Positions 5,789 through 34,608 of a stretch of 36,125 nt of DNA are shown piece after piece (position 1 is the first letter of the stretch; each line of letters opens with the position of its first letter). This DNA comes from Alphaproteobacteria bacterium (lineage in GTDB: Bacteria; Pseudomonadota; Alphaproteobacteria; Rhizobiales; Xanthobacteraceae), in NCBI GenBank assembly GCA_034668865.1, contig JAXDOO010000003.1, forward strand, positions 1 to 36,125, written 5' to 3'. The notes beneath the pieces were generated by a model. It saw only the letters and a program-made list of their open reading frames with translations, was not told the DNA's origin and did not search any database. The position numbers and the translations under genes are program-made.

Positions 5789-7941
5789 GTAAACTCCCGC
5801 GCGAAGCTTACGCCATCATCGAGGGCCGGCATTCCGATCCATTCCACTATCTCGGCCGGCATATGGAGAAAGATGTCGCGGTGGTCCGCGCCTTTCTGCC
5901 TGATGCGGCCGAGGTCCGCGTCATCGACGAGCAAGGCCATGAGAGCAAGCTCAATCGTATCCACGACGCCGGGCTCTTTGCCGGACGTTTGCCTAACGGC
6001 TCGCAGCGCTATCAGCTGCGCGCGCGCTTTGGCCAGAACGTCGTCGAGCTGGAAGATCCCTATCGCTTCCCGCCGGTGCTGTCGGAATTCGACCTCTATC
6101 TCCTGTCCGAGGGCACGCATGTTCATCTTTATGAGAAGCTCGGCGCGCATCCGATGACGCATGAGGGCGTCCCTGGGGTAGCCTTCGTCGTGTTCGTCCC
6201 CGGCGCCAAGCGCGTGAGCGTGGTGGGCGATTTCAATTTGTGGGACGGCCGGCGGCATGCGATGCGCGTGCGCGGCAACGGCTTCTGGGAAATCTTCGTC
6301 CCGCGAGCAAGAGTCGGCGATCACTATAAATACGAGATTGTCGGAATGGACGGCCGGATGTTGCCGCTGAAATCCGATCCCGTTGCCTTTGCCTCCGAAG
6401 TGCGCCCCAGCACCGCGTCAATCGTCGTCGACCTTGATGCGGTGCCGCTCCCTGCTCCCGCGCCGGAAGGCGTCAATGCGCTGAGCGCGCCGATCTCGAT
6501 CTATGAAGTGCATCTCGGCTCATGGCGCCGGCGGCCGGAGGATGGCAACCGCTGGCTCACTTACCGCGAAATGGCCGCCGAGCTGCCAGCTTATGTGAAA
6601 GACCTCGGCTTCACTCATATCGAATTAATGCCGATAAACGAGCATCCATTCGATGGCTCCTGGGGCTATCAACCGACCGGCCTGTTCGCACCCACCAGCC
6701 GCTTCGGCACGCCGGAAGATTTTGCGGCTCTGATCGATGCCTGCCATCAAGCCGGCCTTGCCGTGCTCATTGACTGGGTGCCCGGGCATTTTCCCGACGA
6801 CCCGCATGGGCTTGCGCAATTCAACGGCACCGCACTCTACGAACACGCCAATCCGCTGCAGGGACGGCACCTCGACTGGGGCACCCTGATCTACAATTAC
6901 GGGCGCACGGAAGTGGCGAATTTCCTGCTCGCCAGCGGTCTGTTTTGGCTCGACCGTTATCGTGTCGACGGCCTGCGGGTGGATGCGGTCGCCTCCATGC
7001 TCTATCTCGACTACAGCCGCCCTGAGGGCGGATGGATTCCGAACAAAGATGGCGGGCGCGAAAATCTTGACGCCGTCGCTTTCCTACGCCGCTTCAACTC
7101 GGAAGTTTTCCTGCGCCATCCGAACGCGACCACCGCGGCGGAGGAATCCACCGCCTGGCCGATGGTGTCGCGCCCGGTGGATTGGGGCGGGCTCGGCTTC
7201 GGCTATAAATGGAACATGGGTTGGATGCACGACACTCTGGAATACATCAGCAAGGATCCGATCTACCGCAGACATCACCACGGTCAGATCCTGTTCGGTC
7301 TGCACTACGCCTTCTCGGAAAATTTCATCCTGCCGCTGTCGCATGATGAAGTCGTGCACGGGAAGCGCTCCATTCTCGGGCGCATGCCGGGGGACGAGTG
7401 GCAGCGCTTCGCCAGCCTGCGCGCTTATTACGCTTTCATGTTCGGGCATCCGGGTAAGAAGCTGATGTTCATGGGCAGCGAATTCGGTCAGGAGCGCGAG
7501 TGGAGCCACGACCATTCGCTCGATTGGCACCTGCTGGAAAATCCCAAGCACGCCGGCATCCAAGCGCTCATTCGCGATCTCAACAAGCTCTATCGGGACG
7601 TGCCGGCGCTGCACGAACTTGACTGCGATCATAACGGCTTTGAATGGCTGGTGATGCATGACGCCGACCGCAGCGTCTTCGCCTGGCTGCGGAAGGGACA
7701 CGACACACGTGACCGCTGCCTGGTCGTGGTCAATTTCACGCCGCAGGTCTATCGCGACTATCGCGTCCGCGTGCCTTTCGCCGGCGCGTGGCGGGAAGTC
7801 CTCAATACCGACGCGGCGATTTATGGCGGCAGCAATGTCGGGAACGCTGGAGCGGTGAAGACGTTGGACGAAGGCCCCATCCCCGAGGTCAGTCTTGCGA
7901 TTCCTCCGCTTGCTGCAATCTTTCTCGTCCCAGAGCAGTAG
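5785..7941 (+). CDS. glgB: 1,4-alpha-glucan branching enzyme
   Basis: 718-aa ORF with GH13 branching-enzyme motifs ([42 protein letters not shown]). The ATG overlaps the treS stop (ATGA at 5785-5788). Confidence 0.9.
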
Positions 7942-11775: not shown

Positions 11776-14591
11776 TGCCGCCGGTTGTCCCGATTGCCAC
11801 CTATCGCCTGCAGCTCACGCCGGACTTCGGCTTCGACCAGGCCGCGGCCACCGTGCCTTATCTCAAAGCGCTCGGCATCACGCATCTCTATGCCTCGCCA
11901 TTCCTGAAGGCTCGCGCCGGCAGCAGGCATGGCTACGACATCATCGACCACAACGGTTTTAATCCGGAGCTCGGCGGCGAGGCGGGATTCCTTCGCCTGA
12001 GCCAAGCGCTGACCAAGGCGGACATCGGTCTCATTCTCGATTTCGTGCCCAACCACATGGGCGTCCATCACGCCGACAATGCCTGGTGGCTCGACATGCT
12101 GGAATGGGGACCGAAATCGCCGCATGCCGATTCCTTCGATATCGAATGGGAAACCCTGCCGGAGCGGCCGCGTGGCGGGGTGCTGCTGCCGATCCTCGGA
12201 CGGCCTTATGGCGAGGCGCTGGAAAGCGGTGAGATCGAACTTCGCTACGATCCGCGCGAGGGCAGTTTTTCCGCCTGGTACTTCGATCACCGCATGCCGA
12301 TCGGGCCGAGCCGCTATGGCGAGATTCTGAGCAAGGTGGTCGCGCAGGCCGGCGCCGCCGATCAGCCGGCAGGCCGGCGGCTGCTGGAATTGGCGGCACG
12401 CACCAAGGGCCCGCGCAACCCGCCGCGCGACCAAGCTCCCCAGTTCAAGCAGGAGCTTGCTGCGATCGCGGGCGGAAGCGAGATAATCGAGCGTGGTCTT
12501 GTGGCCTTTCAGCCGAAGGAAGGAGTGCCAGGCGCGGTGACGGCGCTGCATCGCTTGCTCGAGCGGCAATATTACCGGCCGGCCTTTTGGCGGCTCGCGT
12601 CCAATGAAATCAACTACCGCCGCTTCTTCGACATCAATGAGCTCGCCGGCATGCGAGTGGAGGATCCTTCCACCTTTGTATCCATGCACCGGCTTGTCAG
12701 CCGGCTGATCGCCGCAGATCAGTTGCAAGGTCTGCGAATCGACCATATCGACGGCCTGCGCGACCCACAGCAATATCTGCGCCGTCTACAGACTCTGGTG
12801 CGCCACGCGCGGCCGCCCGGCCGCGCCGGCTTCTACCTCCTAGTCGAGAAAATTCTCGCCGAGGGCGAGCAGCTGCCGCGCTTTGCCGGCATCGCCGGCA
12901 CCACTGGTTACGAATGGCTGAACGTCATTTCCCACTTCCTGCTTGATTGGCGCGGGCTCGATACACTCGACCGCGCTTGGCGCGAGGCATCAGGCGACAT
13001 CCGGGATTTTGAACAAGTGTTGGCCGGTGCCAAACGGCGTGTGCTGGGCAACATCCTTGCGAGCGAGTTCACCGTGCTCACGCGCCTTCTGGCGCGCATC
13101 GCTGCCGGCCACTATACCACGCGAGACTATTCTCCCGAGCGGTTGCGAGCCGCGCTGGAAGCCTACGTCATCCATTTCCCGGTTTACCGCACCTACATCA
13201 CGCCCTCCGGTGCTTCGCCCAACGACCAAGCGGTGATTGAAGCGACCATCGCCGGCGCACGCGCGGAGTGGTTTGGCACGGACGCGGACATCTTCGACTT
13301 CCTGCAAGACGCCCTCACCCTTGACCTGATTGCGCCCGGCCGCAGAGGCCATAGCATCCGGCGCGTGCGCCGCTTTGCCTTCAAGGTGCAGCAATTCACC
13401 GGACCGATGATGGCGAAGTCAATGGAGGACACAGCCTTCTACCGCTACCACCGCTTGCTCGCGCTCAATGAGGTGGGCGGCGATCTTTCCGTCGGCGCGC
13501 TAACGCCGGAGGATTTTCATCGGCGCATGCTGTCACGGTCACAAAGCCAACCATATGGTCTCACCGCCAGCGCGACGCATGACACGAAGCGCGGCGAAGA
13601 TGCCCGCGCCCGCATTCTCGGGCTTTCGGAACTGGCTGACGAGTGGAGCAAAGTCACGCGGCAATGGCACGAGCTCAATGCCGCTGTAACGCAGGACCTG
13701 GTGGAGAATCCCTCGCCTGCCCACGAATATATGCTGTACCAGGCTTTGCTTGGCGCCTGGCCTGGCGGTATCGACCAAGATTTCGTCGCGCGCATGCAAA
13801 ATTATGCGGTGAAAGCGGCGCGAGAAGGCAAGGAACAGACCAGTTGGCTCGCACCGAACGAGAGCTATGAAAATGGCCTGAAGGATTTTCTGGCGCGCAT
13901 TCTCGACCGGACACGCTCCGCCGCCTTCCTGGATTCATTTGAAGCCATCGCACGGCGCGCCGCGCTGCTGGGCGCGCTCAATAGTCTCACTCAGGTCACC
14001 TTGAAGACGATGATGCCCGGCGTGCCGGATTTTTATCAGGGCACGGAGTTCTGGGATTTGGCGCTGGTCGATCCCGACAACCGCCGCCCGGTCGATTTCG
14101 CCGCTCGCCGCGCGGCGCTCGCAGAGACAGACGAAAACCCGGATTGGGCGGCGCTGGCCGAGGAGTGGCAAAGCGGCCGAATCAAACTCGCACTCACCCG
14201 CCGGCTGCTGGCGATCCGCAACCGATTCGAACACGTATTCACTCGTGGCAGTTACCAGCCCCTGCGAGTGGAAGGCCCGCAAGCGGATGAGATCGTCGCC
14301 TTTGCGCGCAGCGGCGGCCGCGATACCGTCGTTACCGTGGTGGGGCGATTGTTCGGCCGCGCCACCGAATACGGCCGCTTCTGGCCTTCACCGGAAGCAT
14401 GGAAGCAGACGTCGATAACGTTCGACGGATTTTCCGCGATTCGCCCGCTGCTCGGTCCGGCCCAGCCGGCAGAAGCATCGCAGCTCTCGGTATCACAGCT
14501 ATTCGGTCATTTGCCGGTCATGATCCTGCATGCGGAATTCGCAAAGGTACGCAAGCCGCGCGCGCTGGCCCCAGCGACTGAAAATTCCTAG
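11775..14591 (+). CDS. treY: malto-oligosyltrehalose synthase
   Basis: The track ORF from 11499 lies inside treZ. The preferred ATG at 11775 overlaps the treZ stop (TGATG at 11773-11777). Supporting motifs: MPPVVPIATYRLQLTPDFGF, GLRIDHIDGL, SATHDTKRGED. Confidence 0.88.
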   Translation: MPPVVPIATYRLQLTPDFGFDQAAATVPYLKALGITHLYASPFLKARAGSRHGYDIIDHNGFNPELGGEAGFLRLSQALTKADIGLILDFVPNHMGVHHADNAWWLDMLEWGPKSPHADSFDIEWETLPERPRGGVLLPILGRPYGEALESGEIELRYDPREGSFSAWYFDHRMPIGPSRYGEILSKVVAQAGAADQPAGRRLLELAARTKGPRNPPRDQAPQFKQELAAIAGGSEIIERGLVAFQPKEGVPGAVTALHRLLERQYYRPAFWRLASNEINYRRFFDINELAGMRVEDPSTFVSMHRLVSRLIAADQLQGLRIDHIDGLRDPQQYLRRLQTLVRHARPPGRAGFYLLVEKILAEGEQLPRFAGIAGTTGYEWLNVISHFLLDWRGLDTLDRAWREASGDIRDFEQVLAGAKRRVLGNILASEFTVLTRLLARIAAGHYTTRDYSPERLRAALEAYVIHFPVYRTYITPSGASPNDQAVIEATIAGARAEWFGTDADIFDFLQDALTLDLIAPGRRGHSIRRVRRFAFKVQQFTGPMMAKSMEDTAFYRYHRLLALNEVGGDLSVGALTPEDFHRRMLSRSQSQPYGLTASATHDTKRGEDARARILGLSELADEWSKVTRQWHELNAAVTQDLVENPSPAHEYMLYQALLGAWPGGIDQDFVARMQNYAVKAAREGKEQTSWLAPNESYENGLKDFLARILDRTRSAAFLDSFEAIARRAALLGALNSLTQVTLKTMMPGVPDFYQGTEFWDLALVDPDNRRPVDFAARRAALAETDENPDWAALAEEWQSGRIKLALTRRLLAIRNRFEHVFTRGSYQPLRVEGPQADEIVAFARSGGRDTVVTVVGRLFGRATEYGRFWPSPEAWKQTSITFDGFSAIRPLLGPAQPAEASQLSVSQLFGHLPVMILHAEFAKVRKPRALAPATENS

Positions 14592-14603: not shown

Positions 14604-14629
14604 GGAACCTGACCACGGGATTACCGGTT
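14604..14629 (+). promoter_or_regulatory. EcfG-type (ECF15) promoter candidate, GGAAC-N17-GGTT
   Basis: GGAAC at 14604-14608, 17-nt spacer, GGTT at 14626-14629. It lies 12 nt after the treY stop and 22 nt before ATG 14651. Confidence 0.4.
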
Positions 14630-14650
14630 GTTGTGCAGGAGGATGCGTCA

Positions 14651-14950
14651 ATGGACGACCGGGAAAAACGCGTGCGCGATCGCGCCTACAAGCTGTGGCA
14701 GGAAGAAGGCTGCCCCGAAGGCCGTGAAGATGTGCACTGGGAAAAGGCGCGCGAGTTGGTGGCGATCGAAGACAATATCGACCTCACTCTGAAACCGATC
14801 CCTCGGCCCGATGAATTCGGGCCCCATGGCGAGCCTATCGAACCGCTCGGACCAGCAGAAAATACCGGCGAAGCCCCCACCATGGTCGACCAGGGCGAAG
14901 AAGAGACCATTCCGCATCGACGCACCGACCAATTCGCCGACAAGAAATAA
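14651..14950 (+). CDS. DUF2934-family small protein
   Basis: MDDREKRVRDRAYKLWQEEGCPEGREDVHWEKARELV matches my recollection of the DUF2934 core (RAY-x-LW...G-x-P-x-G...W). AGGAGGA lies 7 nt upstream of ATG 14651. The track GTG at 14633 would lie upstream of the predicted transcription start. Confidence 0.6.
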   Translation: MDDREKRVRDRAYKLWQEEGCPEGREDVHWEKARELVAIEDNIDLTLKPIPRPDEFGPHGEPIEPLGPAENTGEAPTMVDQGEEETIPHRRTDQFADKK

Positions 14951-25706: not shown

Positions 25707-26756
25707 TCAGGCTGCGATGTCGATGATTACTTTGATATCGCCGCGGCGGTGTTCGAGCGCGTCCTGCCAACGCTCGAGCGGCACCCGCCGGGTGATCAGC
25801 CGGCGCAGCCACGCCTTGTCGGCCTTGGCGAGCGCCTGTGCGGCTGCTTCATAATGCACGCGATTGCCGTTGACGCTGCCGAAGACGACCTGATTGTTCA
25901 GGACCATGGTGCGGTTCCACGCGCCCACGTCGAATTCGGCCGCATGCCCCGCCGGCGAAACCCCGGCAAGGCAAACGATACCACTTGGCGCAACACGCTG
26001 GAGCGCTCCGGTGATCACTGGAACGGCGCCCGTGCACTCGATCAGGATATCCGGCTGCAAATCGACCGCGCCGATATCGCTGGTGTGATATTCTGCGCCA
26101 AGGCCGCGCGCGAGCTCGGGCTTGGGCCCGGTGGCATTGCGGTCGAGAAGATGGACCTCCAGCCCTCGTTGCACCCCGATCAGCGCGGCGAGTAGCCCAA
26201 TGGGACCCGCACCGGTGACGAGAACAATTTTCGGTGGCCATGAACGTGACCGCCGGCCGACGGCTTCGATGTGATCCCATGCCTTGGCAACCACGCTGGT
26301 CGGCTCGATCAACACACCCAGAATCTCCAGGCCGGGATCGACCTTGATGGCGAATTCGGGCTCGATGCGGAACAGCTCGGCGCCGAAGCCGTTGCGCGCT
26401 TTTATGCCGTGCTCGGTATATTCGCCGTTGAGGCACATGTCCCATTCTCCCGCCGCACAGGCCGGGCATGGGACGGGGTCAGGATGGCGCACAAAGCCGA
26501 CGATCAAATCTCCGGGAGCAAAGCCGCTGTCCCGCGGCGCCTGCTCCACCCGCCCTAGGGATTCGTGGCCGAGGATAAGCCGCTCCTGCCCCACGGGTGC
26601 AGCTCCATATTTTCCCGCCATGATCTCGCGGTCGGTGCCGCATACGCCTAGGACGATGGCGCGAGCCAGGACCGAGCCTTCCGACAGCGGCGGCTCCGGC
26701 ACCTCGTCAAGTCGCAGCGAATTCGCCACGCCTGGCAGGACTGTCAGCGCACGCAT
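25707..26756 (-). CDS. Zn-dependent medium-chain dehydrogenase, glucose 1-dehydrogenase-like
   Basis: 349-aa ORF. GVCGTDREI and the GroES-like/Rossmann layout (VLVTGAGPIGLL) resemble archaeal-type glucose dehydrogenases. The stop lies 1 nt before the GH15 start, so an operon is likely. Confidence 0.75.
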   Translation of the reverse strand: MRALTVLPGVANSLRLDEVPEPPLSEGSVLARAIVLGVCGTDREIMAGKYGAAPVGQERLILGHESLGRVEQAPRDSGFAPGDLIVGFVRHPDPVPCPACAAGEWDMCLNGEYTEHGIKARNGFGAELFRIEPEFAIKVDPGLEILGVLIEPTSVVAKAWDHIEAVGRRSRSWPPKIVLVTGAGPIGLLAALIGVQRGLEVHLLDRNATGPKPELARGLGAEYHTSDIGAVDLQPDILIECTGAVPVITGALQRVAPSGIVCLAGVSPAGHAAEFDVGAWNRTMVLNNQVVFGSVNGNRVHYEAAAQALAKADKAWLRRLITRRVPLERWQDALEHRRGDIKVIIDIAA

Positions 26757-26859: not shown

Positions 26860-27231
26860 ATGGAAGCCATTGGAAAAAAACGATGGGCAATACCCGAAGG
26901 TTACATCCCTTCTGAGAGCTGTTCGAACGAACGCGCACTGATTTCGCATGAAACGGCCTGCATCCTGAATGCCGGCGACGCCGAGGCGCATATTACGCTG
27001 ACGGTCTACTTTACCAATCGCGAGCCGGTGACTTACCAAGTCGCCGTGCCGGCGCGCCGCACCCTTCATCTCCGCTTCAACGACTTGAAGGATCCCGAAG
27101 CCGTTCCCCTGGACACCGATTTTTCTTCGGTATTTGAATCTGATGTGCCCATCACGGTTCAGCACACGCGGCTTGATTCGCGGCGCGCGGAAATTTCGCT
27201 GCTCAGCACGATCGCCTATGCTCAGGATTAA
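26860..27231 (+). CDS. sensory rhodopsin transducer (ASRT) family protein
   Basis: 123 aa. KRWAIPEGYIP...ISHETACILNAGDAEAHITLTVYF...VPARRTLHLRFNDL...DTDFSSVFESDVPITVQHTRLDSRRAEISLLSTIAY matches my recollection of the ASRT (PF07100) consensus nearly along the full length. AGGAGA lies 7 nt upstream. Confidence 0.7.
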   Translation: MEAIGKKRWAIPEGYIPSESCSNERALISHETACILNAGDAEAHITLTVYFTNREPVTYQVAVPARRTLHLRFNDLKDPEAVPLDTDFSSVFESDVPITVQHTRLDSRRAEISLLSTIAYAQD

Positions 27232-27336
27232 ATCCCTTCAACTCTAAGGGGACGCCGGACGGCTTTCCGTCGGGGAGGGAGGGGTATGAAGGCCGTCCGG
27301 CGTATTTGACGCGACCGAGGGGGAAGTCGCGTCTTA
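27225..27336 (-). ncRNA. candidate GsrN-like small RNA (about 110 nt, three hairpins, C-rich loops)
   Basis: Predicted minus-strand RNA: hairpin 1 GACGCGAC-UUCCCCCUCG-GUCGCGUC (27333-27308). Hairpin 2 ACGCCGGACGGC-[CUUCAUACCCCUCCCUCCCCGACGGAAA]-GCCGUCCGGCGU (27303-27252). Hairpin 3 CCCUU-AGAGUUG-AAGGG (27250-27234) followed by AUUUAAU. An EcfG-like motif lies directly upstream and there is no ORF. Confidence 0.4.
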
Positions 27337-27342
27337 AAGGCA

Positions 27343-27368
27343 AACACGCGGAGCCTTGCGAATGTTCC
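27343..27368 (-). promoter_or_regulatory. EcfG-type promoter candidate, GGAAC-N17-TGTT
   Basis: Minus-strand GGAAC (27368-27364), 17-nt spacer, TGTT (27346-27343). It lies 28 nt downstream of the DUF2188 stop and about 10 nt before hairpin 1 of the sRNA candidate. Confidence 0.35.
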
Positions 27369-27395
27369 GTGGTTGCCGCCGGGCGTTTGGAACAA

Positions 27396-27632
27396 CTACG
27401 CGCGAGGAAGATAAGGCCCCTGCCCGTATGTCCATTCGGGCCGGAAATGGCCGTTCTCGCCCATCACGCAGACTTCAGCCTTCCGGTCACCCTGATCGCC
27501 CAGCTTCTGGGCTGCATCGATGGCGAAAAGCATGGCCTCGGACTGGGTGCGATAAGGCCCATATTCCTCATCGTCGAACTTGATCAGCCAGTTGCCGTCG
27601 TGCTGAACGACAAAATAGCGGGCCTGGGCCAT
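27396..27632 (-). CDS. DUF2188-like small protein
   Basis: I prefer ATG 27632 (MAQARYFVVQHDGNWLIKFDDEEYGPYRTQSEAMLFAIDAAQKLG) with GGAGA 6 nt upstream. The track start at 27710 overlaps otsA2. The family assignment is from memory of the motif pattern. Confidence 0.55.
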   Translation of the reverse strand: MAQARYFVVQHDGNWLIKFDDEEYGPYRTQSEAMLFAIDAAQKLGDQGDRKAEVCVMGENGHFRPEWTYGQGPYLPRA

Positions 27633-27690
27633 TCGTAATCTCCTGCCGCAACAGGTGAGATAAGCAGCTTGCCCAAGTTTCGCGACGAAA

Positions 27691-29187
27691 TTAATGCCGG
27701 GAATCGCCATTCACTAGATTTTGACCGGCCGAGGCGGCGGTGCGATTGCCAATTTCGCGGCGGCGCAGCTGGAACGGCAGCAAGGTGGCGCTCTCTGGAA
27801 CGACCGCCGGCTCTGGGTAAGGCATGCGCAAGGCGGTGACGAAATCCGAGAACCAGGCCTGCAAAGGCGCGGCGATCAGCGCCTTCATCATAGCGTCCCA
27901 GCGTTCGCGCCGCTCGTCTTGCGGCATGCTGAAGGCCTCGGCTATGGCGCTGGAGAGCCCTTCGATATCGTGCGGGTTGACCAGGATTGCCGCATCCAGC
28001 TGCTGGGCGGCGCCCGCGAACTTGGAGAGCACCAGCACTCCCGGATTGGAGGGATCCTGTGCTGCAACATATTCTTTGGCGACGAGATTCATGCCGTCGC
28101 GCAACGATGTTACCAAACCGACCTGCGCTATGCGGTAGAAGCAGGCCAGCCTGCCCTGGGAAAAGCCCTTTGTAAGGTACCGAATGGGCGCCCAATCAAT
28201 CTCCCCATGGCGGCCGTTGATTTCGGTCACTTGGCCTGCGAGCTGCAATTGAAGTTTTTGATAGGCGTCGACGTGAACGCGCGAGGGCACGGCGATCTGC
28301 AATAGCGCAACCGTGCGCTTAAGCGCCGGATGATGTTGCAGCAGCTGGTCGAAAGCTTCCAGGCGGTTAGTCAGCCCTTTCGAATAGTCGACGCGGTCCA
28401 CGCCGATCGCCAGCCGCGCACCTTGCAAACTGGCGCGCAGGCGGGCGGCTTCCGGGCGCCCCGCCGCTTTGACGGCGCGCGCCGCGAAACTGACCGCGTC
28501 AATCCCGATCGGGAAGGTGCCGATGCGAACGGTGCGCTTGCCGACCTTATAGACATCGCCGTCGCTCTTTAGGCCCAGTTCGTTCTCGAGATACTTAGCC
28601 AAATTGACGTGGTCTTCGTCGGTTTGCACCCCGATCAGATCGTAGGCGAGCATCGCATGGATCAATTCGCGATGATGCGGCACGCTGGAGAACACGCCGC
28701 GCGTCGGGAACGGCGTGTGCAGAAAGAAGCCGATCGGTTGGGTGATGCCGAGCTTGCGCATATCCGCGCCGAGCGCGAGGTAGTGATAATCGTGAATCCA
28801 GAAGGCCGCATCCGGTTTAGCAAAGCGGATCAGTACCCGCGCCATTAGAGTGTTGATTTCCCGATAGGCGGCGTAATCCTCACCCGACGTGCGGATCAGA
28901 TCCGGGCGCGAATGCAATGCCGGCCAAAGTGCGGAATTGGAGAATCCATCGTAAAAGGCGCGATACTGCTTTTTAGGCAAATCGACGGTGGCGATGCTGC
29001 CGGCGCCATAAGATTTTATCGTTGCGAAGGGCTCCTTCGCTGGCACTTCCAGCGGGCACTGGCTGGCGCCAACCCAAATGGCCCCGCAAGTCTGCACGGC
29101 AGGAAGTAACGCAGCCGCCAATCCTCCTTCGATCGGTTCGTCCGCCACTGGGCAGGCGACGCGATTCGAAACCACGACCAATGTCAT
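27691..29187 (-). CDS. otsA: second trehalose-phosphate synthase paralog (GT20)
   Basis: 498-aa ORF with MTLVVVSNRV, WIHDYHY, GFFLHTPFP, DRVDYSKG and RDGMNLVAKEY. Clearly diverged from the otsA at 22463-23887. Confidence 0.88.
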   Translation of the reverse strand: MTLVVVSNRVACPVADEPIEGGLAAALLPAVQTCGAIWVGASQCPLEVPAKEPFATIKSYGAGSIATVDLPKKQYRAFYDGFSNSALWPALHSRPDLIRTSGEDYAAYREINTLMARVLIRFAKPDAAFWIHDYHYLALGADMRKLGITQPIGFFLHTPFPTRGVFSSVPHHRELIHAMLAYDLIGVQTDEDHVNLAKYLENELGLKSDGDVYKVGKRTVRIGTFPIGIDAVSFAARAVKAAGRPEAARLRASLQGARLAIGVDRVDYSKGLTNRLEAFDQLLQHHPALKRTVALLQIAVPSRVHVDAYQKLQLQLAGQVTEINGRHGEIDWAPIRYLTKGFSQGRLACFYRIAQVGLVTSLRDGMNLVAKEYVAAQDPSNPGVLVLSKFAGAAQQLDAAILVNPHDIEGLSSAIAEAFSMPQDERRERWDAMMKALIAAPLQAWFSDFVTALRMPYPEPAVVPESATLLPFQLRRREIGNRTAASAGQNLVNGDSRH

Positions 29188-29217
29188 TTGTCATGTTTCT
29201 CCGCACACCAGAAACCT

Positions 29218-29242
29218 AACGATCCGTTCATCTAATGGTTCC
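29218..29242 (-). promoter_or_regulatory. EcfG-type promoter, perfect GGAAC-N16-CGTT
   Basis: Minus-strand GGAAC (29242-29238), 16-nt spacer, CGTT (29221-29218), 31 nt upstream of the otsA2 ATG at 29187. Confidence 0.65.
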
Positions 29243-29273
29243 GATTGGAGACGCCGAAATCGCGGCCGAGCTC

Positions 29274-29301
29274 AAAAAAACGGCCGCCAAAAGGCGGCCG
29301 T
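29274..29301 (-). terminator. Rho-independent terminator of the DUF992 gene (also has a T-rich tail on the plus strand)
   Basis: ACGGCCGCC-AAAA-GGCGGCCGT stem-loop (29280-29301). It is flanked by A7 on the left (U run on the minus strand) and TCTTTTCTT on the right. Confidence 0.6.
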
Positions 29302-29324
29302 TCTTTTCTTACATCTGATCAAAT

Positions 29325-29792
29325 TTACCGCGCCGCGCGTAATTGCAACCCGGACACGCCCACCGCGAGATTCAAGCCTGACTGCCCTTGCACCGATAAC
29401 GGTTGCAAGCTGATCGTGCGATCCGAGCCGCCGACCAGGACGTTGGCGCCGAGCCCGGCACCGACCGTTGCTTCTGCAGTAGCGCCGGTATAATTGCCGG
29501 CTAAGGCGCCGGCCTTGCGGCTGGTAGGAGCAAAAACCGCCCAGGCCATGCGGCCTTGAGTCGTCGCGCCAATATCCAGGCCGAACTTATTGATGGTGCC
29601 TACATAAACTTCTTTTGCCCCCTTGGAGGGAGCGAAGTTGCAGGTCATCGTCTTCTGGGAGGTAACAATCATCCCGATCCCACCAGAAATGTTACAGGTC
29701 AGGGTACCGACCTTGGCAGGCTGCTGCGCCGATGCCGGCCCCGCTACCGCGGCAATCAGAACGGAAGCAATCACAACAATCGATTTTTTCAT
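29325..29792 (-). CDS. DUF992-family exported protein
   Basis: 155 aa. Signal peptide MKKSIVVIASVLIAAVAGPASA/QQ, then GTLTCNISGGIGMIVTSQKTMTCNF...GLDIGAT...GATAEATVGAGLGANVLVGGS, the pattern I associate with DUF992. Confidence 0.7.
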   Translation of the reverse strand: MKKSIVVIASVLIAAVAGPASAQQPAKVGTLTCNISGGIGMIVTSQKTMTCNFAPSKGAKEVYVGTINKFGLDIGATTQGRMAWAVFAPTSRKAGALAGNYTGATAEATVGAGLGANVLVGGSDRTISLQPLSVQGQSGLNLAVGVSGLQLRAAR

Positions 29793-29818
29793 GCACTACC
29801 TCCTCGCGCGACCCGCAA

Positions 29819-29843
29819 AACGTCCCGGTTAATGGTTGGTTCC
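29819..29843 (-). promoter_or_regulatory. EcfG-type promoter, perfect GGAAC-N16-CGTT
   Basis: Minus-strand GGAAC (29843-29839), 16-nt spacer, CGTT (29822-29819), 27 nt upstream of the DUF992 ATG at 29792. Confidence 0.65.
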
Positions 29844-29881
29844 GAAATCAGCAAAAATTCATCTTTCGCACGGCTTGGAGA

Positions 29882-29906
29882 GGAACTTTCTACTGTGGTG
29901 AGTATT
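29882..29906 (+). promoter_or_regulatory. weak EcfG-type promoter candidate, GGAAC-N16-TATT
   Basis: GGAAC at 29882-29886, TATT at 29903-29906, 49 nt upstream of the DUF3309 ATG. The -10 deviates from CGTT at two positions. Confidence 0.25.
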
Positions 29907-29954
29907 GAGCCCGTGCCTGAACGGCATTTTTTAATTTTAAGAGAGAATTACGTC

Positions 29955-30113
29955 ATGTCACTCGGCACCATTCTTATCATCGTCCTGATCCTGGTCCTCC
30001 TGGGCGTTATCCCGACTTGGCCGCATAGCGCTGGCTGGGGTTATGGTCCCTCGGGACTGGTCGGGGTAATCCTCGTCATTCTGCTGATCCTGGTCCTGCT
30101 CGGACGGATCTAG
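29955..30113 (+). CDS. DUF3309-family small membrane protein (52 aa)
   Basis: MSLGTILIIVLILVLLGVIPTWPHSAGWGYGPSGLVGVILVILLILVLLGRI: two TM helices around the conserved PTWP...GWGY core. Only the last 52 codons of track ORF 29556..30113 are credible. Confidence 0.7.
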   Translation: MSLGTILIIVLILVLLGVIPTWPHSAGWGYGPSGLVGVILVILLILVLLGRI

Positions 30114-30137
30114 CTTCGGTTCAGGCCGCCAAAAGCC

Positions 30138-30177
30138 AGCCATGCCGTAGCTCGCGCCGCGGCATGGCTGTGGTTTT
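30138..30177. terminator. bidirectional stem-loop terminator between convergent genes
   Basis: AGCCATGCCG (30138-30147) pairs with CGGCATGGCT (30160-30169). It is followed by GTGGTTTTCC on the plus strand and GGCTTTTGG on the minus strand. Confidence 0.55.
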
Positions 30178-30196
30178 CCGGCAGAAGGATCGGATA

Positions 30197-30523
30197 TCAG
30201 GTAAGGCACCGGCTGGCGAAATTGTTCTTGGCTGACGCCATCAGCGGACTGAATGCAGGATCGCAACCCTCAAGGATTTTCGGTTCCTTGGCCGCCGCAG
30301 GCTTGCGCTTCTCGTTCGCAGATGTCGGGACGCGTACGTCGCGAGCCGTGAGTTCACGGTCGCCTTTAATCATTCGGTTCACGATGGTGGTTTGCGCCGC
30401 CCCAGCGGGTTCGATGACAGTAGGCCGGAAGGCACTAAGGCCGCTCTCGGCGGAGACGGCGACGTAAGCGGTCATCAGAAGCGCGGCGAGGCCGCCGGCG
30501 GAATAACGCAAAAGTGCGCACAT
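30197..30523 (-). CDS. exported hypothetical protein (108 aa)
   Basis: I prefer ATG 30523 (MCALLRYSAGGLAALLMTAYVAVSA/ESG, signal-peptide-like) with GGAGAG 5 nt upstream. The track TTG at 30583 is less likely. The C-terminus carries a Cys pair, GCDPAFSPL...RCLT. Confidence 0.55.
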   Translation of the reverse strand: MCALLRYSAGGLAALLMTAYVAVSAESGLSAFRPTVIEPAGAAQTTIVNRMIKGDRELTARDVRVPTSANEKRKPAAAKEPKILEGCDPAFSPLMASAKNNFASRCLT

Positions 30524-30600
30524 CGGATCTCTCCAATATACCAGCAACGGCGCTCCGGGCGCAGATGGGGGCGCTGAGGGCAAGGAAGATTTGGCGGGTC

Positions 30601-30625
30601 AACGTGCGCAGTAGCAGCAGGTTCC
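30601..30625 (-). promoter_or_regulatory. EcfG-type promoter, perfect GGAAC-N16-CGTT
   Basis: Minus-strand GGAAC (30625-30621), 16-nt spacer, CGTT (30604-30601). It lies 20 nt after the kinase stop and 78 nt upstream of ATG 30523. Confidence 0.6.
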
Positions 30626-30644
30626 GGCCGCAAGCAGTCAACTC

Positions 30645-32054
30645 TTAGCGACCGACCGACAATTGAACGACCGGGATGACAATCCGGCAGCGTACCCCGG
30701 CGGGGGTGAAGTCCATGGTTACCTCGGCGTCCAGGGAGCGCGTAAGATTTTGCTCAATCACCATGCTGCCGAAGCCGCGCTGCTTGGGCGGCTTGACCTT
30801 GGGTCCGTGCTCCTCGTCCCAGCAGATCTCAACTCCGTGACCTTCAGTTGCAGGCATCCGCTTCCAGCAGATGGAAACATGTCCCTTCGGCACGGAAAGC
30901 GCTCCGTATTTTGCTGCATTGGTAGCCAATTCGTGCAGTGCCAGCCCTAGGCTTTGCGCCGCTTCCGGCTTCAGCACGACGGTCGGGCCATTGAGCGAAA
31001 CCTGGGTGCTGACCCTATCAAGGTAATGCCCAAGTTGGGATCGCACCAACTCATACAGCGAAACACCGTACCAGCTTTCCTGCACCAGAAGGTCGTGCGA
31101 GGTCGCCAGCGCCTGCAAGCGCGCACCGAATTGCATGAGAAAGCCGTCGATGGAGCCGACGTGCCGTGCCGTCTGCCGCGCCATAGCCTGGATCACGGCG
31201 AGCAGATTCTTCGAGCGATGCGTCAATTCGCGCATCAATAGGCGCAGATGCGCTTCCCCCTCCTTGCGCTCAGTGATGTCAACCGCTGCGCAGCTCAGGC
31301 CGACGATGGCGCCCATGATGTCTCGCAGGGGCTCAATGTGCAGATCATGCCAGCGTTCGCCGGAAGCTGTCTGGATGCAGACCTCGCTATCCTGCGGGCT
31401 GCCGGTTTCCAGCGCGGCACGCTTCAAGGCGATGATCGCCGAGCGGCTGGCCGCCGGGAGTACATCCTCGTCGGTATGACCGATGATCTCATCGATCTTA
31501 CGCTCGAATATGGGATTGCTGATGGAGGTGTAACGCAAGTCGCGATCTTGCGTATAAACAGTGACATTCGATCCGCGTAGCGCGGTCTCATAGCGCTGCA
31601 AGGTGCCAGCCAGTTGCTCGCTCAGATCGCGGTGTTCGCTCTCCAGCGAGCGTACACGGGAAATATCAATGGCGGTGGTGGTGATGCCGACGACTTTGCG
31701 GTCGGGCCCAAGGATTGGATGCACATGCAAGGCGAAGAGCTTGCGGCCTTCCGGCAAGGTATAAGATACCTCGCAATCCGCCGGCACGCCGCTCTGCAAC
31801 ACCCGTTGCTTGACGGCGACCACGGCCTCGCGTTCGCGCGATGGCAAGAGCTCCTCATCGGTGCGGCCGGTGAGGCCATCGCCGCCAGGGGGGCCGTAAA
31901 CCCAGGTGTAGCGAAGATCCTCATCCTGGCGGAAGACATAGATGTTCGCTTCCGCGAGGGCAGCTTCCAGCTGCTCAGGCGGAAATTGGCCTGCTGGCGC
32001 GCTGTCTTTGCGGGAGGATGCTGTCGTCAATTGTTTCTCATATGGCCGCACCAA
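30645..32054 (-). CDS. cytoplasmic PAS-PAS HWE/HisKA_2-type sensor histidine kinase (GSR kinase candidate)
   Basis: 469 aa with no TM segment and two PAS-like repeats (YVFRQDEDLRYTWV, VYTQDRDLRYTSI). H-box LTHRSKNLLAVIQAMARQT and C-terminal HELATNAAKYGA. Adjacent to phyR. The start (TTG 32054 or GTG 32051) is uncertain. Confidence 0.85.
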   Translation of the reverse strand: MVRPYEKQLTTASSRKDSAPAGQFPPEQLEAALAEANIYVFRQDEDLRYTWVYGPPGGDGLTGRTDEELLPSREREAVVAVKQRVLQSGVPADCEVSYTLPEGRKLFALHVHPILGPDRKVVGITTTAIDISRVRSLESEHRDLSEQLAGTLQRYETALRGSNVTVYTQDRDLRYTSISNPIFERKIDEIIGHTDEDVLPAASRSAIIALKRAALETGSPQDSEVCIQTASGERWHDLHIEPLRDIMGAIVGLSCAAVDITERKEGEAHLRLLMRELTHRSKNLLAVIQAMARQTARHVGSIDGFLMQFGARLQALATSHDLLVQESWYGVSLYELVRSQLGHYLDRVSTQVSLNGPTVVLKPEAAQSLGLALHELATNAAKYGALSVPKGHVSICWKRMPATEGHGVEICWDEEHGPKVKPPKQRGFGSMVIEQNLTRSLDAEVTMDFTPAGVRCRIVIPVVQLSVGR

Positions 32055-32097
32055 GCATTCTCACAGAACAATAACCAATTATCTGATGTGGTGTCGC

Positions 32098-32123
32098 AAC
32101 TGCGGCGACACCACTGCGGTTCC
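32098..32123 (-). promoter_or_regulatory. EcfG-type promoter candidate, GGAAC-N17-AGTT
   Basis: Minus-strand GGAAC (32123-32119), 17-nt spacer, AGTT (32101-32098), about 45 nt upstream of the kinase start. The spacer is part of a perfect 10-bp hairpin (32088-32097 / 32105-32114). Confidence 0.35.
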
Positions 32124-32480
32124 GTACGATAGAACCAAGATGATCAAGCGCGTGGTTGCGGCGGAACCTTGATTGCTGCCCGCGCATTGAAATTGAGGAT
32201 CGGCCGCATCCCCTCCCCTTCGCGCGGCCTTCAATTAGGCGTAGCTGGCCATCTGCCGGCTGCGCCTCTTTGCGTCGAACGCTTGCGACTGCCCCCCATT
32301 TCGCTGCCGTGCCGCAGGGAAAGCAATTTTCCTCATGGCAGCAAAAAGCAAGTCTCGGAGCGATGACATCGCTGCCGTCGAAGAGCGGATGCAAGATTTG
32401 GAGTCGCGACTGCGCCGCGTTAATGCCAAGGCAAAGGCAAATGTAGACGGCGGTGCGACAGCGCGGCGGAGGTAGCGGCT

Positions 32481-33284
32481 CTAAGCCGTGGCGCGGTGCT
32501 CGCGGCGCTTGGCCTTGCGCTCAAAGAACAGCGCCTGGCTGAGCACGGCCGAAACGGTCGCCGGCTGGAACGGCTTGGCGATTAGGAAGGCCGGCTCCGG
32601 CCGCTGCCCGGTGAGGAATCTTTCCGGATAGGCGGTGATGAAGATCACCGGCACTTCAAAAAGCCGCAACAATTCGTTGACCGCGTCGAGGCCGGAACTG
32701 CCGTCGGCCAGTTGGATGTCGGCAAGGATCAGACCGGGGCGCTTGGCCTTGGCCAGCGCGATCGCTTCCGAATGGGTGCGCGCGACACCGAGCACGCGAT
32801 GGCCCAGGCTTTCGACGAGGCCCTCCAAATCCATCGCGATAAAAGTCTCGTCTTCGATGATCAACACGTCAGTGGCGATCTCGGCTGCCAGCTCACGGCC
32901 CGATTCCTCCACTAACCGCCGCAGGGTGGGCACATCGACGTCCAGGACCTTCGCTGCGTCATCTTCCGACAACCCCTCCAAGGCGACAAGCAGGAAAGCT
33001 TGGCGGGGCTTCGGGGTGATATGCGAAAGCCGCTGCTCCACCGGCATATCCCGGCTCGCCGGCTCGGTGGCGTCGTTGACGGGTACGGAATTCCAGATCT
33101 TGGTGAAAAGTCGATAGAGCGCGACTCGGGTGGAGGCCGCCTTTTCCAGCACGCTGGGGTCCTCGATCAGGGCCTCCAGGGTCGTGGCCACATAGGCATC
33201 GCCAGAGCTCTGGCTCCCGGTCAAGGCGCGGGCATAGCGGCGGAGATAGGGCAAATGTTGCGCTACGGCTTGAGACGTCGACAC
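32481..33284 (-). CDS. phyR: PhyR anti-anti-sigma response regulator (sigma-like domain + receiver)
   Basis: VSTSQAVAQHLPYLRRYARALTGSQSSGD is the canonical PhyR N-terminus. C-terminal receiver: VLIIEDE...LILADIQLADGSSG...KPF. I prefer GTG 33284 with GGGAGGG 6 nt upstream over the track TTG at 33341. Confidence 0.88.
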   Translation of the reverse strand: MSTSQAVAQHLPYLRRYARALTGSQSSGDAYVATTLEALIEDPSVLEKAASTRVALYRLFTKIWNSVPVNDATEPASRDMPVEQRLSHITPKPRQAFLLVALEGLSEDDAAKVLDVDVPTLRRLVEESGRELAAEIATDVLIIEDETFIAMDLEGLVESLGHRVLGVARTHSEAIALAKAKRPGLILADIQLADGSSGLDAVNELLRLFEVPVIFITAYPERFLTGQRPEPAFLIAKPFQPATVSAVLSQALFFERKAKRREHRATA

Positions 33285-33366
33285 GGAAAACCCTCCCAGT
33301 TCGATTCGGAAAACCCCCGGCGACCCCCTGAGGGCATACAATAATTCAAATCCGCTCTAAGGCAAT

Positions 33367-33391
33367 GGAACCGCTCATTGCCAAAAAAGTT
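33367..33391 (+). promoter_or_regulatory. EcfG-type promoter of nepR-ecfG, GGAAC-N16-AGTT
   Basis: GGAAC at 33367-33371, 16-nt spacer, AGTT at 33388-33391, about 98 nt upstream of the nepR ATG. Confidence 0.55.
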
Positions 33392-33393
33392 CC
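33369..33393 (-). promoter_or_regulatory. EcfG-type promoter of phyR, GGAAC-N16-GGTT
   Basis: Minus-strand GGAAC (33393-33389), 16-nt spacer, GGTT (33372-33369). It overlaps the nepR promoter face to face. Confidence 0.55.
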
Positions 33394-33488
33394 CCTAACT
33401 ATGGAACGAAACCTGCAAGTGAGACTTTTACTCCGATGACGCAAGGGGGGCCGGCCGCTTTTAAGCAAAAAGGGCCGGTGAGGGACGC

Positions 33489-33701
33489 ATGAAAGACGCC
33501 AAATCAACCGGAACCCGTTCGCAGATGGAAACTGGAACTAGCCCAGGCAAGCCCGACGCGAAATTGGGTCGCGATATTCAAGCAAAGATCGGCCAACAGC
33601 TCCGCGCCCTGTATGACGAAGTGCTCAATCAGGGAGTACCGGACCGCTTTGCGGATCTCTTGAATCGCCTAGATAAGCCGGATGACAAGGAGTCGCGGTA
33701 A
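33489..33701 (+). CDS. nepR: NepR anti-sigma factor
   Basis: 70 aa. IGQQLRALYDEVLNQGVPDRFADLLNRL is the conserved NepR core. The stop overlaps the ecfG start (TAATG). Confidence 0.8.
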   Translation: MKDAKSTGTRSQMETGTSPGKPDAKLGRDIQAKIGQQLRALYDEVLNQGVPDRFADLLNRLDKPDDKESR

Positions 33702-34252
33702 TGGCTCTGGACGCGTCCGTCCGAGATGCTGTCCTGGCAGCAGTCCCCAGCCTGCGCGCCTTCGCCATTTCATTGTGCGGGAACGTCGACCGCGCGGACG
33801 ACTTGGTGCAGGAAACGCTGTTGCGCGCCTTGGCCAATATCAATTCGTTCCAGCCCGGCACGAACATGTCCGCTTGGCTGTTCACCATTCTGCGCAATCA
33901 TTTTCGCTCGGAATATCGCAAGCGCCGGCGTGAGGTCGAGGACGGCGACGGCAGCTATGCCGAAACGCTGAAATCGCATCCGGAGCAGTATGGCCGGGTT
34001 GAATTTGAAGAATTCCGCACGGCGTTGGCCAAGCTGCCGCCGGATCAGCGAGAAGCGCTGGTGCTGGTGGGGGCCTCAGGATTTTCCTACGAGGAAGCGG
34101 CAACGATCTGCGAGTGCGCTGTCGGCACCATCAAGAGCCGCGTCAATCGGGCCCGTACCCGCCTGTCAGAGTTGATGTCGGTCGAAAGTGTCGATGATTT
34201 CGGCCCCGACCGCACCACCCGCGCTATTCTCGCCCGCACCGAAAGAGCCTAA
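33701..34252 (+). CDS. ecfG: ECF sigma factor EcfG (ECF15 group)
   Basis: 183 aa with region 2 (DDLVQETLLRA, WLFTILRNHF) and region 4 (LPPDQREALVLVGASGFSYEEAA). Sits in the nepR-ecfG / phyR arrangement. Confidence 0.9.
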   Translation: MALDASVRDAVLAAVPSLRAFAISLCGNVDRADDLVQETLLRALANINSFQPGTNMSAWLFTILRNHFRSEYRKRRREVEDGDGSYAETLKSHPEQYGRVEFEEFRTALAKLPPDQREALVLVGASGFSYEEAATICECAVGTIKSRVNRARTRLSELMSVESVDDFGPDRTTRAILARTERA

Positions 34253-34269
34253 TTCGTCCTCCCAATGCA

Positions 34270-34300
34270 AAGGGCCCGCCGGCTTGCGCGACGGGCCCTT
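34270..34300. terminator. stem-loop between the convergent ecfG and DUF1328 genes
   Basis: AAGGGCCCG (34270-34278) pairs with CGGGCCCTT (34292-34300) across a 13-nt loop. There is no clear U tail on either strand. Confidence 0.4.
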
Positions 34301-34322
34301 CTGCACTTGGCCCTCCCGCAGC

Positions 34323-34502
34323 TTAAGAGACTGTCGGCGACCGGCCGCGCAACAGCGCGACGACCGCAGAGATCGCGAAAAGGACGATCGCGACGAAGAA
34401 CACAAGTTTAGCCGCTTCGACTGCCACGCCTGCGATGCCGCCGAATCCGAGAAGCGCGGCGATCAGGGCAACGACAAGAAAGGTAAGAGCCCAGCCTAAC
34501 AT
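34323..34502 (-). CDS. DUF1328 (UPF0391) small membrane protein
   Basis: [53 protein letters not shown] is the typical family sequence. AGGAGA lies 6 nt upstream of ATG 34502, and the track start at 34517 falls inside that SD. Confidence 0.75.
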
Positions 34503-34538
34503 GGGACGTCTCCTCATTGTTGTAACTGCTGGAGAATA

Positions 34539-34564
34539 AACTCTGGGCGTTGGTGAATTGTTCC
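34539..34564 (-). promoter_or_regulatory. EcfG-type promoter candidate, GGAAC-N17-AGTT
   Basis: Minus-strand GGAAC (34564-34560), 17-nt spacer, AGTT (34542-34539), 37 nt upstream of ATG 34502. Confidence 0.5.
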
Positions 34565-34583
34565 GGCGGCAATGGAGCCGCGA

Positions 34584-34608
34584 GGAACCACAGATTGTCT
34601 ATGACGTT
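34584..34608 (+). promoter_or_regulatory. EcfG-type promoter, perfect GGAAC-N16-CGTT
   Basis: GGAAC at 34584-34588, 16-nt spacer, CGTT at 34605-34608, 30 nt upstream of the ligD ATG at 34638. Confidence 0.65.

Follow-up and report, generated by a model that had tools for sequence, protein, structure and literature searches.

A probable PhyR-NepR-EcfG general stress response locus lying amid its own predicted targets in a Pseudolabrys-like soil Xanthobacteraceae

The DNA considered here—36,125 nucleotides of contig JAXDOO010000003.1 (GenBank assembly GCA_034668865.1) from an alphaproteobacterium of the Xanthobacteraceae, referred to as the window—carries the regulators of a PhyR-NepR-EcfG general stress response (GSR) together with genes for glycogen and trehalose metabolism, DNA repair, and small envelope proteins. 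According to a Pfam search of the window proteins, a transposase fragment at the left edge is followed by glgE, treS-mak, glgB, glgX, treZ, treY, a DUF2934 gene, and tRNA-Gln. The middle part holds two large open reading frames (ORFs) flanking an ABC ATPase gene, otsB-otsA1, a GH15 enzyme gene with a glucose dehydrogenase gene on the minus strand, and a gene for an ASRT-family protein. To the right lie a DUF2188 gene and otsA2 (minus), a DUF992 gene (minus), a DUF3309 gene (plus), a gene for a small exported protein (minus), a PAS-HWE kinase gene and phyR (minus), nepR-ecfG (plus), a DUF1328 gene (minus), and ligD (plus), which is cut by the window end. The nearest public loci belong to Xanthobacteraceae or Pseudolabrys-like soil metagenome-assembled genomes (MAGs), and 80 related loci, labelled L001, L002, and so on, were anchored on PhyR at 76–99% PhyR identity; L001 and L002 are about 89% and L003 about 72% identical to the window at the DNA level. 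With a probability of roughly 0.85, the window represents the GSR locus of a Pseudolabrys-like soil member of the Xanthobacteraceae placed amid its own targets, the recurrent GGAAC-CGTT motifs being promoters read by EcfG-RNA polymerase.

The anti-anti-sigma response regulator gene phyR (32481–33284, minus strand, GTG start at 33284) matches the Pfam families PhyR_sigma2, PhyR_sigma-like, and Response_reg, and its product aligns over its full length with the PhyR structures 4g97, 4qic, and 3n0r (for 4g97, E = 1.9e-88 over residues 2–263), the sigma-like domain being N-terminal and the receiver C-terminal; the gene shares its locus with nepR-ecfG. The stop codon (33699–33701) of nepR, which encodes the anti-sigma factor (33489–33701, plus strand; Pfam NepR, E = 1.3e-16), overlaps the ATG at 33701 of ecfG (33701–34252, plus strand), whose product is a sigma factor of the extracytoplasmic function (ECF) type matching Sigma70_r2 (E = 8.8e-16), Sigma70_r4_2 (E = 1.2e-16), and PhyR_sigma2. 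Downstream of phyR, as in 72 of the 80 loci, is the gene for a PhyK-like PAS-HWE histidine kinase (30645–32054, minus strand; HWE_HK, E = 1.3e-25, and PAS_4). The features of an ECF15-type system—a sigma-2/sigma-4 EcfG, an overlapping upstream nepR, PhyR, and an HWE kinase—are all found in the window.

Upstream of phyR, a GGAAC-N16-GGTT site (33369–33393, minus strand) has a −10 box ending 85 nt before the GTG, and a GGAAC(T)6-rich site occupies this position in 74 of 79 relatives, 68 of which have the perfect CGTT. Two candidate promoters face nepR-ecfG on the plus strand. The one named in an earlier, sequence-only reading of this DNA (33367–33391, GGAAC-N16-AGTT) is present and forms a face-to-face palindromic overlap with the phyR promoter, but is confined to the window, L001, and L002. 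The other (33403–33428) combines GGAAC with a non-consensus −10 box, ACTT/CTTT, that ends 61 nt before the nepR ATG; its −35 box stands back to back with that of phyR, 9 bp apart, and its GGAAC is kept in L001–L003. The same geometry, with two −35 boxes back to back at 7–10 bp, holds in 64 of 77 pairs across the clade, where nepR sites lie 60–70 nt from the nepR start and match the relaxed motif in 68 of 76 relatives, mostly as GGGTT. This arrangement points to the GGAAC at 33403, rather than the site first named, as the conserved nepR promoter position, the −10 box having drifted in the window lineage to ACTT/CTTT in place of GGTT. The GGAAC-N16/17-CGTT arrangement expected of autoregulation is found ahead of both phyR and nepR-ecfG, in the window with GGTT at phyR and the non-consensus −10 box at nepR.

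Over the whole window, GGAAC-N16-CGTT occurs six times against 0.34 expected from dinucleotide shuffles, none of 100 of which reached six; the chance expectation of 0.28 given earlier was about right. Four of the six are intergenic, and two coding matches had escaped the sequence-only reading: one at 7841–7865 (plus) in glgB and one at 26369–26393 (plus), antisense within the glucose dehydrogenase gene. The latter was discarded as a promoter and attributed to chance, its −35 or −10 box being mutated in L002, L044, L028, L062, L048, and L026. Intergenic DNA, which amounts to 2.9–3.4 kb depending on the gene calls and thus agrees with the earlier figure of about 3.1 kb, was also tested on its own by dinucleotide-preserving shuffles: four perfect sites compare with 0.037 expected and ten GGAAC-N16/17-NGTT sites with 0.20, neither count being equalled in 2000 shuffles. 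Perfect motifs therefore stand at 1.2 per kb between genes and 0.06 per kb within them, and the four intergenic ones all lie 27–78 nt upstream of a gene in the correct orientation, so that the claim of an excess far above chance holds. In the looser published form, GGAAC-N18/19-TT, there are 14 intergenic −35 positions compared with five in 33 kb of coding DNA, and 14 of the 16 intergenic GGAAC pentamers fit it; all 14 are oriented toward a start codon 22–148 nt downstream, except the site of a candidate small RNA (sRNA), which no ORF follows. Every perfect and NGTT site listed in the sequence-only reading was recovered at its coordinates and on its strand, and Pfam agrees with the identities given there for phyR, nepR, ecfG, the HWE kinase, otsA2, DUF992, DUF1328, DUF2934, and ligD; the list lacked variant sites before the DUF3309 gene, a truncated small gene, and glgE. 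Upstream of otsB-otsA1, the GH15-glucose dehydrogenase operon, and the ASRT gene, no GGAAC-type site was found, and these are therefore not claimed as targets. Neither extended repeats nor a repeat family joining the sites was found, so an origin of the sites by copying of a repetitive or mobile element was rejected.

Across the 80 PhyR-anchored loci, the GGAAC and CGTT boxes stay constant while the spacers diverge, as seen at phyR, nepR, DUF992, the exported protein, and DUF1328. Besides the regulators, a perfect site precedes the DUF992 gene in 26 of 34 relatives, the exported-protein gene in 16 of 20 (19 of 20 under the relaxed motif), and the DUF1328 gene in 26 of 32 (with some site in 30 of 32). 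The order ligD, DUF1328, ecfG-nepR, phyR, kinase, exported protein, (DUF3309), DUF992, otsA2, DUF2188 recurs in the clade, and full-length loci hold a median of five perfect sites per 20.8 kb around phyR, mostly within about 6 kb of it. Clustering of the sites near phyR is a clade-wide property. Together with the regulator identities and the enrichment and orientation of intergenic sites, this footprint of fixed boxes and diverging spacers supports the core reading, and the earlier proposal that the regulators sit amid their own targets finds backing at the level of sequence.

In L001–L003, past ligD and thus beyond what would be the right edge of the window, there is a divergent pair of perfect EcfG motifs (4729–5929 in L001, near 5270–5370 in L002 and L003) that precedes genes for a DUF892 (YciE/YciF-like) protein and for a PF04120 protein ("low affinity iron permease"); the cluster therefore probably extends further. 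The DUF992 gene with its promoter (29310–29845 in the window) is missing from L001 and present in L002 and L003, indicating that small target genes are gained and lost between close relatives.

Among the predicted targets, otsA2 encodes a trehalose-6-phosphate synthase (27691–29187, minus strand; Glyco_transf_20, E = 4e-108) and has a perfect motif (29218–29242, minus) 31 nt from its ATG at 29187. This promoter probably drives both otsA2 and the DUF2188 gene (27396–27632, minus; Pfam DUF2188). Boxes and spacer are identical in L001 save the base after GGAAC, the site is perfect with a near-identical spacer in L002, and L003 has a TGTT variant. The DUF992 gene (29325–29792, minus; Pfam DUF992) is preceded by a perfect motif (29819–29843, minus) 27 nt from its ATG at 29792. 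Back to back with it, a GGAAC-N16-TATT variant (29882–29906, plus) faces the DUF3309 gene (29955–30113, plus; E = 3e-22); this site, GGAACTTTCTA...GTATT, is kept in L001 and L002, and the sites before the orthologous genes of L048, L052, and L062 are perfect. The small exported protein (30197–30523, minus), to which the Pfam search assigned no family, has a perfect motif (30601–30625, minus) 78 nt from its ATG, and the DUF1328 gene (34323–34502, minus; Pfam DUF1328) a GGAAC-N17-AGTT site (34539–34564, minus) 37 nt from its ATG at 34502. A perfect GGAAC-N16-CGTT (34584–34608, plus) stands 30 nt before the ATG (34638) of ligD, which matches LigD_N and DNA_ligase_A_M and runs out of the window. 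Farther to the left, a GGAAC-N17-GGTT site (14604–14629, plus) lies 22 nt from the likely ATG at 14651 of the DUF2934 gene (Pfam DUF2934). A Shine-Dalgarno sequence, AGGAGG, at 14637–14642 makes this the most likely start, and the site is therefore properly placed, as had been proposed; a perfect motif lies upstream of the orthologues in both L111 and L117.

A weak variant, GGAAC-N16-TATT (454–478, plus), is found 63 nt upstream of glgE (start at 541), and in 10 of 19 related loci GGAACCAAAG-N-GGTT lies 50–64 nt upstream of this gene. On its upstream side, the glgE promoter region adjoins the N-terminal part of an IS1595-family transposase gene (2–325, minus; Zn_ribbon_IS1595, E = 1.4e-16) that crosses the left window edge and may have made this promoter differ from its counterparts in other lineages. 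A further variant, GGAAC-N17-CATT (32163–32188, plus), precedes a truncated ORF of 46 codons (32335–32475, plus), the N-terminal remnant of a 117-aa gene; the CATT form is kept in L001 and L002, and L003 has a perfect CGTT at the equivalent position. L001 (10808–11520, minus) has an intact gene for the 117-aa coiled-coil, tail-anchored protein followed by one for a 118-aa membrane protein, as does L002, and the window has lost about 600 bp at this point. Pfam gave no family for either intact protein, and a DUF883/ElaB-like identity assigned by eye to the truncated ORF and its L001 homologue was dropped for want of Pfam support.

The site noted earlier before a putative sRNA is a GGAAC-N17-TGTT variant (27343–27368, minus). 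The candidate itself, about 85–100 nt long (27239–27340, minus), would form two hairpins with C-rich loops: hairpin 1 at 27333–27308, with the predicted loop UUCCCCCUCG kept as (U)CCC(C/G)UC in seven sequences, and hairpin 2 at 27303–27252, with a loop containing CCCCUCCCUCCCC. The region folds with a minimum free energy of −43.7 kcal/mol (z = −4.7) and is conserved in L001–L003. By covariance model, six homologues were recovered, including those in L044, L052, and L017, each directly preceded by an EcfG-type promoter; the promoter is kept in L001 and L002, is a perfect GGAAC-N16-CGTT in L003, L044, and L017, and ends in GGTT in L052. The stems contain three compensatory pairs, and the long outer stem of hairpin 2 has no broken pair. 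Both the promoter and a conserved structured RNA are thus borne out by comparison, the −10 box being a variant. The distance to the phyR stop is 5.1 kb in the window, and that to phyR about 3.5–6 kb in six related loci; the element usually comes after DUF2188 and otherwise lies near ots genes. At gathering thresholds, Rfam recognized only tRNA-Gln in the whole window; in the sRNA region, a permissive scan yielded sub-threshold likeness to 6C, ErsA, and CcsR1 only and no match to GsrN, and no known RNA family is therefore assigned. Membership in CcsR1/cuckoo RNA (RF02791; 14.8 bits, gathering threshold 65.3) and in 6C RNA (RF01066; 23.5 bits, threshold 47) was rejected, although the two-hairpin architecture with C-rich loops is shared with the latter. 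If it is such an RNA, it would probably act on G-rich ribosome-binding regions. In L044 (14418–14570, minus) and L017 (near 12190–12240, minus), a small ORF whose product ends in ...LLGIW(S) terminates immediately ahead of the sRNA promoter; it has no equivalent in the window.

Within glgB, the perfect motif at 7841–7865 is located at the 3′ end, with 78 nt between it and the ATG of glgX (7943), which follows the glgB stop by one base. It spans the codons Gly-Asn...Thr-Leu and was compared in 45 soil-metagenome loci anchored on TreZ (64–78% TreZ identity), in 34 of which it is perfect. The Gly codon is GGG in 36 of 41, against a background of 16% of glgB Gly codons, and the Leu codon TTG in 30 of 38, against 12% of Leu codons; the Thr codon is ACG in 34 of 37 and the Asn codon AAC in 39 of 41, whereas 33 of 41 use AAT for the Asn three codons upstream. 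The four motif codons are fixed at 81–95%, the adjoining Gly codons use GGC, and among 118 glgB columns with a conserved residue no other strongly fixed codon is equally rare. Judged by these codon choices, 7841–7865 is likely an internal EcfG-type promoter for glgX-treZ-treY. Over roughly its final 15 codons (7894–7941), glgB turns to rare A/T-ending codons (CTT, GCT, GCA, ATT, TTT, and GTT) in the window and in relatives, a switch consistent with a constraint on translation initiation of glgX or with the 5′ untranslated region (UTR) of an internal transcript.

On the established model of the family, stress would lead the HWE/HisKA2 kinase to phosphorylate PhyR, and phosphorylated PhyR would expose its sigma-like domain and capture the anti-sigma factor NepR. 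EcfG thus freed would direct transcription at GGAAC-N16/17-(C)GTT promoters. The predicted targets comprise phyR and nepR-ecfG themselves, which would amount to positive feedback, otsA2—the second trehalose-6-phosphate synthase gene—with DUF2188, DUF2934, the nonhomologous end-joining (NHEJ) ligase LigD, the two-hairpin sRNA, and the small envelope proteins DUF992, DUF3309, DUF1328, and the unclassified exported protein; glgX-treZ-treY, transcribed from within the end of glgB, is a probable further target. On this model the sites would fire under stress; that EcfG is the factor reading them is inferred from the fit of the motif to the published consensus, from its position before phyR and nepR-ecfG, and from a target set that matches known regulons. 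The EcfG regulon of Bradyrhizobium diazoefficiens includes otsA, otsB, and treS (PMC8092242), the EcfG-type regulon of Sinorhizobium meliloti ku3-ku4 and ligD4 (PMC6379672), and the EcfG regulon of Sphingomonas melonis the treY-malQ-treZ-glgX cluster and Ku (PMC6599016).

Several observations weigh against this interpretation or parts of it. A number of sites have non-consensus −10 boxes (AGTT, TGTT, GGTT, TATT, CATT, and ACTT); a fixed −35 box with a flexible −10 box is documented for EcfG promoters, and variants of such kinds are found among validated EcfG targets (PMC7083833, PMC6599016). The nepR promoter is ambiguous between its two candidates. The ligD motif, present and oriented as first described, is kept in nearer relatives only (L001, L002, L003, L024, and L033) and in a minority overall, 6–10 of 35 loci. 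The kinase site of the sequence-only reading (32098–32123, minus, GGAAC-N17-AGTT) exists but makes a weak promoter candidate on comparison with relatives: L001 has CGAAC and another spacing, L002 another spacing, the −10 box falls within the loop of a conserved hairpin (32088–32114), and in most relatives the kinase gene directly follows phyR. Codon inertia is high throughout glgB (median top-codon share about 0.7), so that no clean P value can be attached to the internal promoter. Lastly, 36 kb of the genome were seen, leaving room for paralogous EcfG-type or other ECF factors. An AAC-containing −35 box and a CGT-containing −10 box are common to many ECF sigma factors, and the sites might be read by an EcfG paralogue or another group with GGAAC/CGTT-like specificity encoded elsewhere in the genome; half of alphaproteobacterial genomes carry at least two EcfG-like genes (PMC3892343, PMC7083833). 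Such an arrangement appears quite improbable here, since a motif before phyR and nepR-ecfG marks the autoregulation characteristic of the primary EcfG (PMC7083833) and the target set matches published EcfG regulons. An origin of the enrichment in chance or in the composition of AT-richer intergenic DNA, with non-functional sites, might be argued from the lower GC content between genes (0.56 compared with 0.61 overall) and from the non-conserved chance match at 26369; the shuffles confined to intergenic DNA and the conservation of boxes amid diverging spacers refute it, and it retains virtually no weight.

The two less conventional elements have rivals of their own. Placed between the convergent genes for ASRT and DUF2188, the sRNA region could represent no more than a bidirectional terminator or a 3′ UTR: hairpin 2 is located 20 nt past the ASRT stop, the element is always found after DUF2188 or near ots genes, and no clear U tail is seen behind hairpin 2 in the window. 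Yet an EcfG-type promoter lies directly upstream in all seven copies, loci without ASRT included, the C-rich loops are conserved beyond what a terminator needs, and hairpin 1 shows compensatory changes, which makes a terminator or 3′ UTR improbable and favours a promoter-driven sRNA. The motif within glgB, in turn, could be kept by protein and codon constraint or phylogenetic inertia acting on the Gly-Asn...Thr-Leu peptide, with glgX-treZ-treY transcribed by read-through. The conservation of these amino acids in the GlgB of relatives, the fair conservation of other synonymous positions nearby, and the near-contact of glgB and glgX, which suits an operon, speak for this explanation. Against it, two of the motif codons are rare and nonetheless fixed, the adjoining Gly and Asn codons take other synonyms, an equally rare codon is found in no other highly conserved column, and the glgX-treZ-treY cluster of S. 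melonis is EcfG-dependent (PMC6599016). Constraint with read-through is therefore regarded as rather unlikely, and an internal promoter is preferred.

Some features of the window stand apart from the promoter argument. Just upstream of the kinase gene and overlapping its doubtful promoter, a perfect 10-bp inverted repeat (32088–32114), GTGGTGTCGC-N7-GCGACACCAC, is kept in L001 and, in part, in L002; it may serve as an operator or form an RNA hairpin. After tRNA-Gln, the segment 15378–21688 holds a 604-aa ORF, the ABC ATPase gene, and a 991-aa ORF; neither of the two large ORFs has a Pfam match. The segment is missing from L003, where otsB adjoins tRNA-Gln, and may be an insertion at the tRNA gene. 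The ASRT-family gene (Anabaena sensory rhodopsin transducer; 26860–27231, plus; E = 1.8e-50) is placed between the sugar-metabolism genes and the sRNA, and no rhodopsin gene lies in the window.

The system, its motif, its autoregulation, and most of its target classes are already known from Bradyrhizobium, Sinorhizobium, Sphingomonas, and Caulobacter. As in the ECF15 systems of B. diazoefficiens, Methylobacterium, Caulobacter, and Sphingomonas, nepR-ecfG is divergent from phyR with an HWE kinase gene alongside, and the promoters, the autoregulatory ones included, follow the consensus GGAAC-N16/17-CGTT, in which the −35 box is invariant and the −10 box flexible (PMC7083833, PMC6599016). The window differs in its uncultured Xanthobacteraceae lineage, in the drifted nepR −10 box, and in an unusual density of candidate targets around the regulators, where about ten sites share 7.3 kb, the whole window holding 14. 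Trehalose synthesis in B. diazoefficiens (otsA, otsCB, and treS; PMC8092242) likewise involves a trehalose-6-phosphate synthase gene with an EcfG-type promoter, and trehalose and glycogen genes are apparently GSR targets in both; here, however, the canonical otsB-otsA1 lacks the motif, which is found on otsA2, a second, stand-alone gene paired with DUF2188. The predicted GSR control of genes for glycogen debranching and TreYZ has, by analogy, a counterpart in treY-malQ-treZ-glgX of S. melonis Fr1, a cluster without a good motif that was classed as a putative indirect target (PMC6599016), whereas in the window a perfect motif lies within the preceding glgB and appears to be kept by synonymous-codon choice. 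The RpoE2-dependent NHEJ genes of S. meliloti (ku3-ku4 and ligD4; PMC6379672) share with the window an EcfG-type promoter directly upstream of ligD; in contrast, no ku gene is visible in the window, and the ligD motif is confined to nearer relatives. GsrN and GsrN-like sigma-EcfG-dependent sRNAs, which occur near GSR loci (PMC5869019), resemble the candidate sRNA in their EcfG-type promoter, their location, and a 5′ hairpin whose C-rich loop is predicted to be exposed; they differ in that no detectable sequence relationship was established and in that the RNA described here has two C-rich loops, an architecture also reminiscent of 6C RNA and CcsR1. With about even odds, two elements may be undescribed: an EcfG-type promoter within glgB held by rare synonymous codons across many soil Hyphomicrobiales, and an EcfG-driven family of two-C-loop sRNAs accompanying the trehalose and GSR genes of Xanthobacteraceae.

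How the GSR system works is understood as before; the specific gains are a candidate internal promoter in glgB that is open to synonymous mutation and a covariance model for a new GsrN-like RNA. If the promoter within glgB is real, it would let stress convert glycogen to trehalose independently of the upstream glgE-treS-glgB genes, and it would explain why the Sphingomonas cluster looked like an indirect target. For an abundant, uncultured, Pseudolabrys-related soil lineage, the analysis provides a comparative map of the core of the GSR regulon, in which the supply of trehalose, repair by end joining, small envelope proteins, and an sRNA would all be linked to a stress sigma factor.

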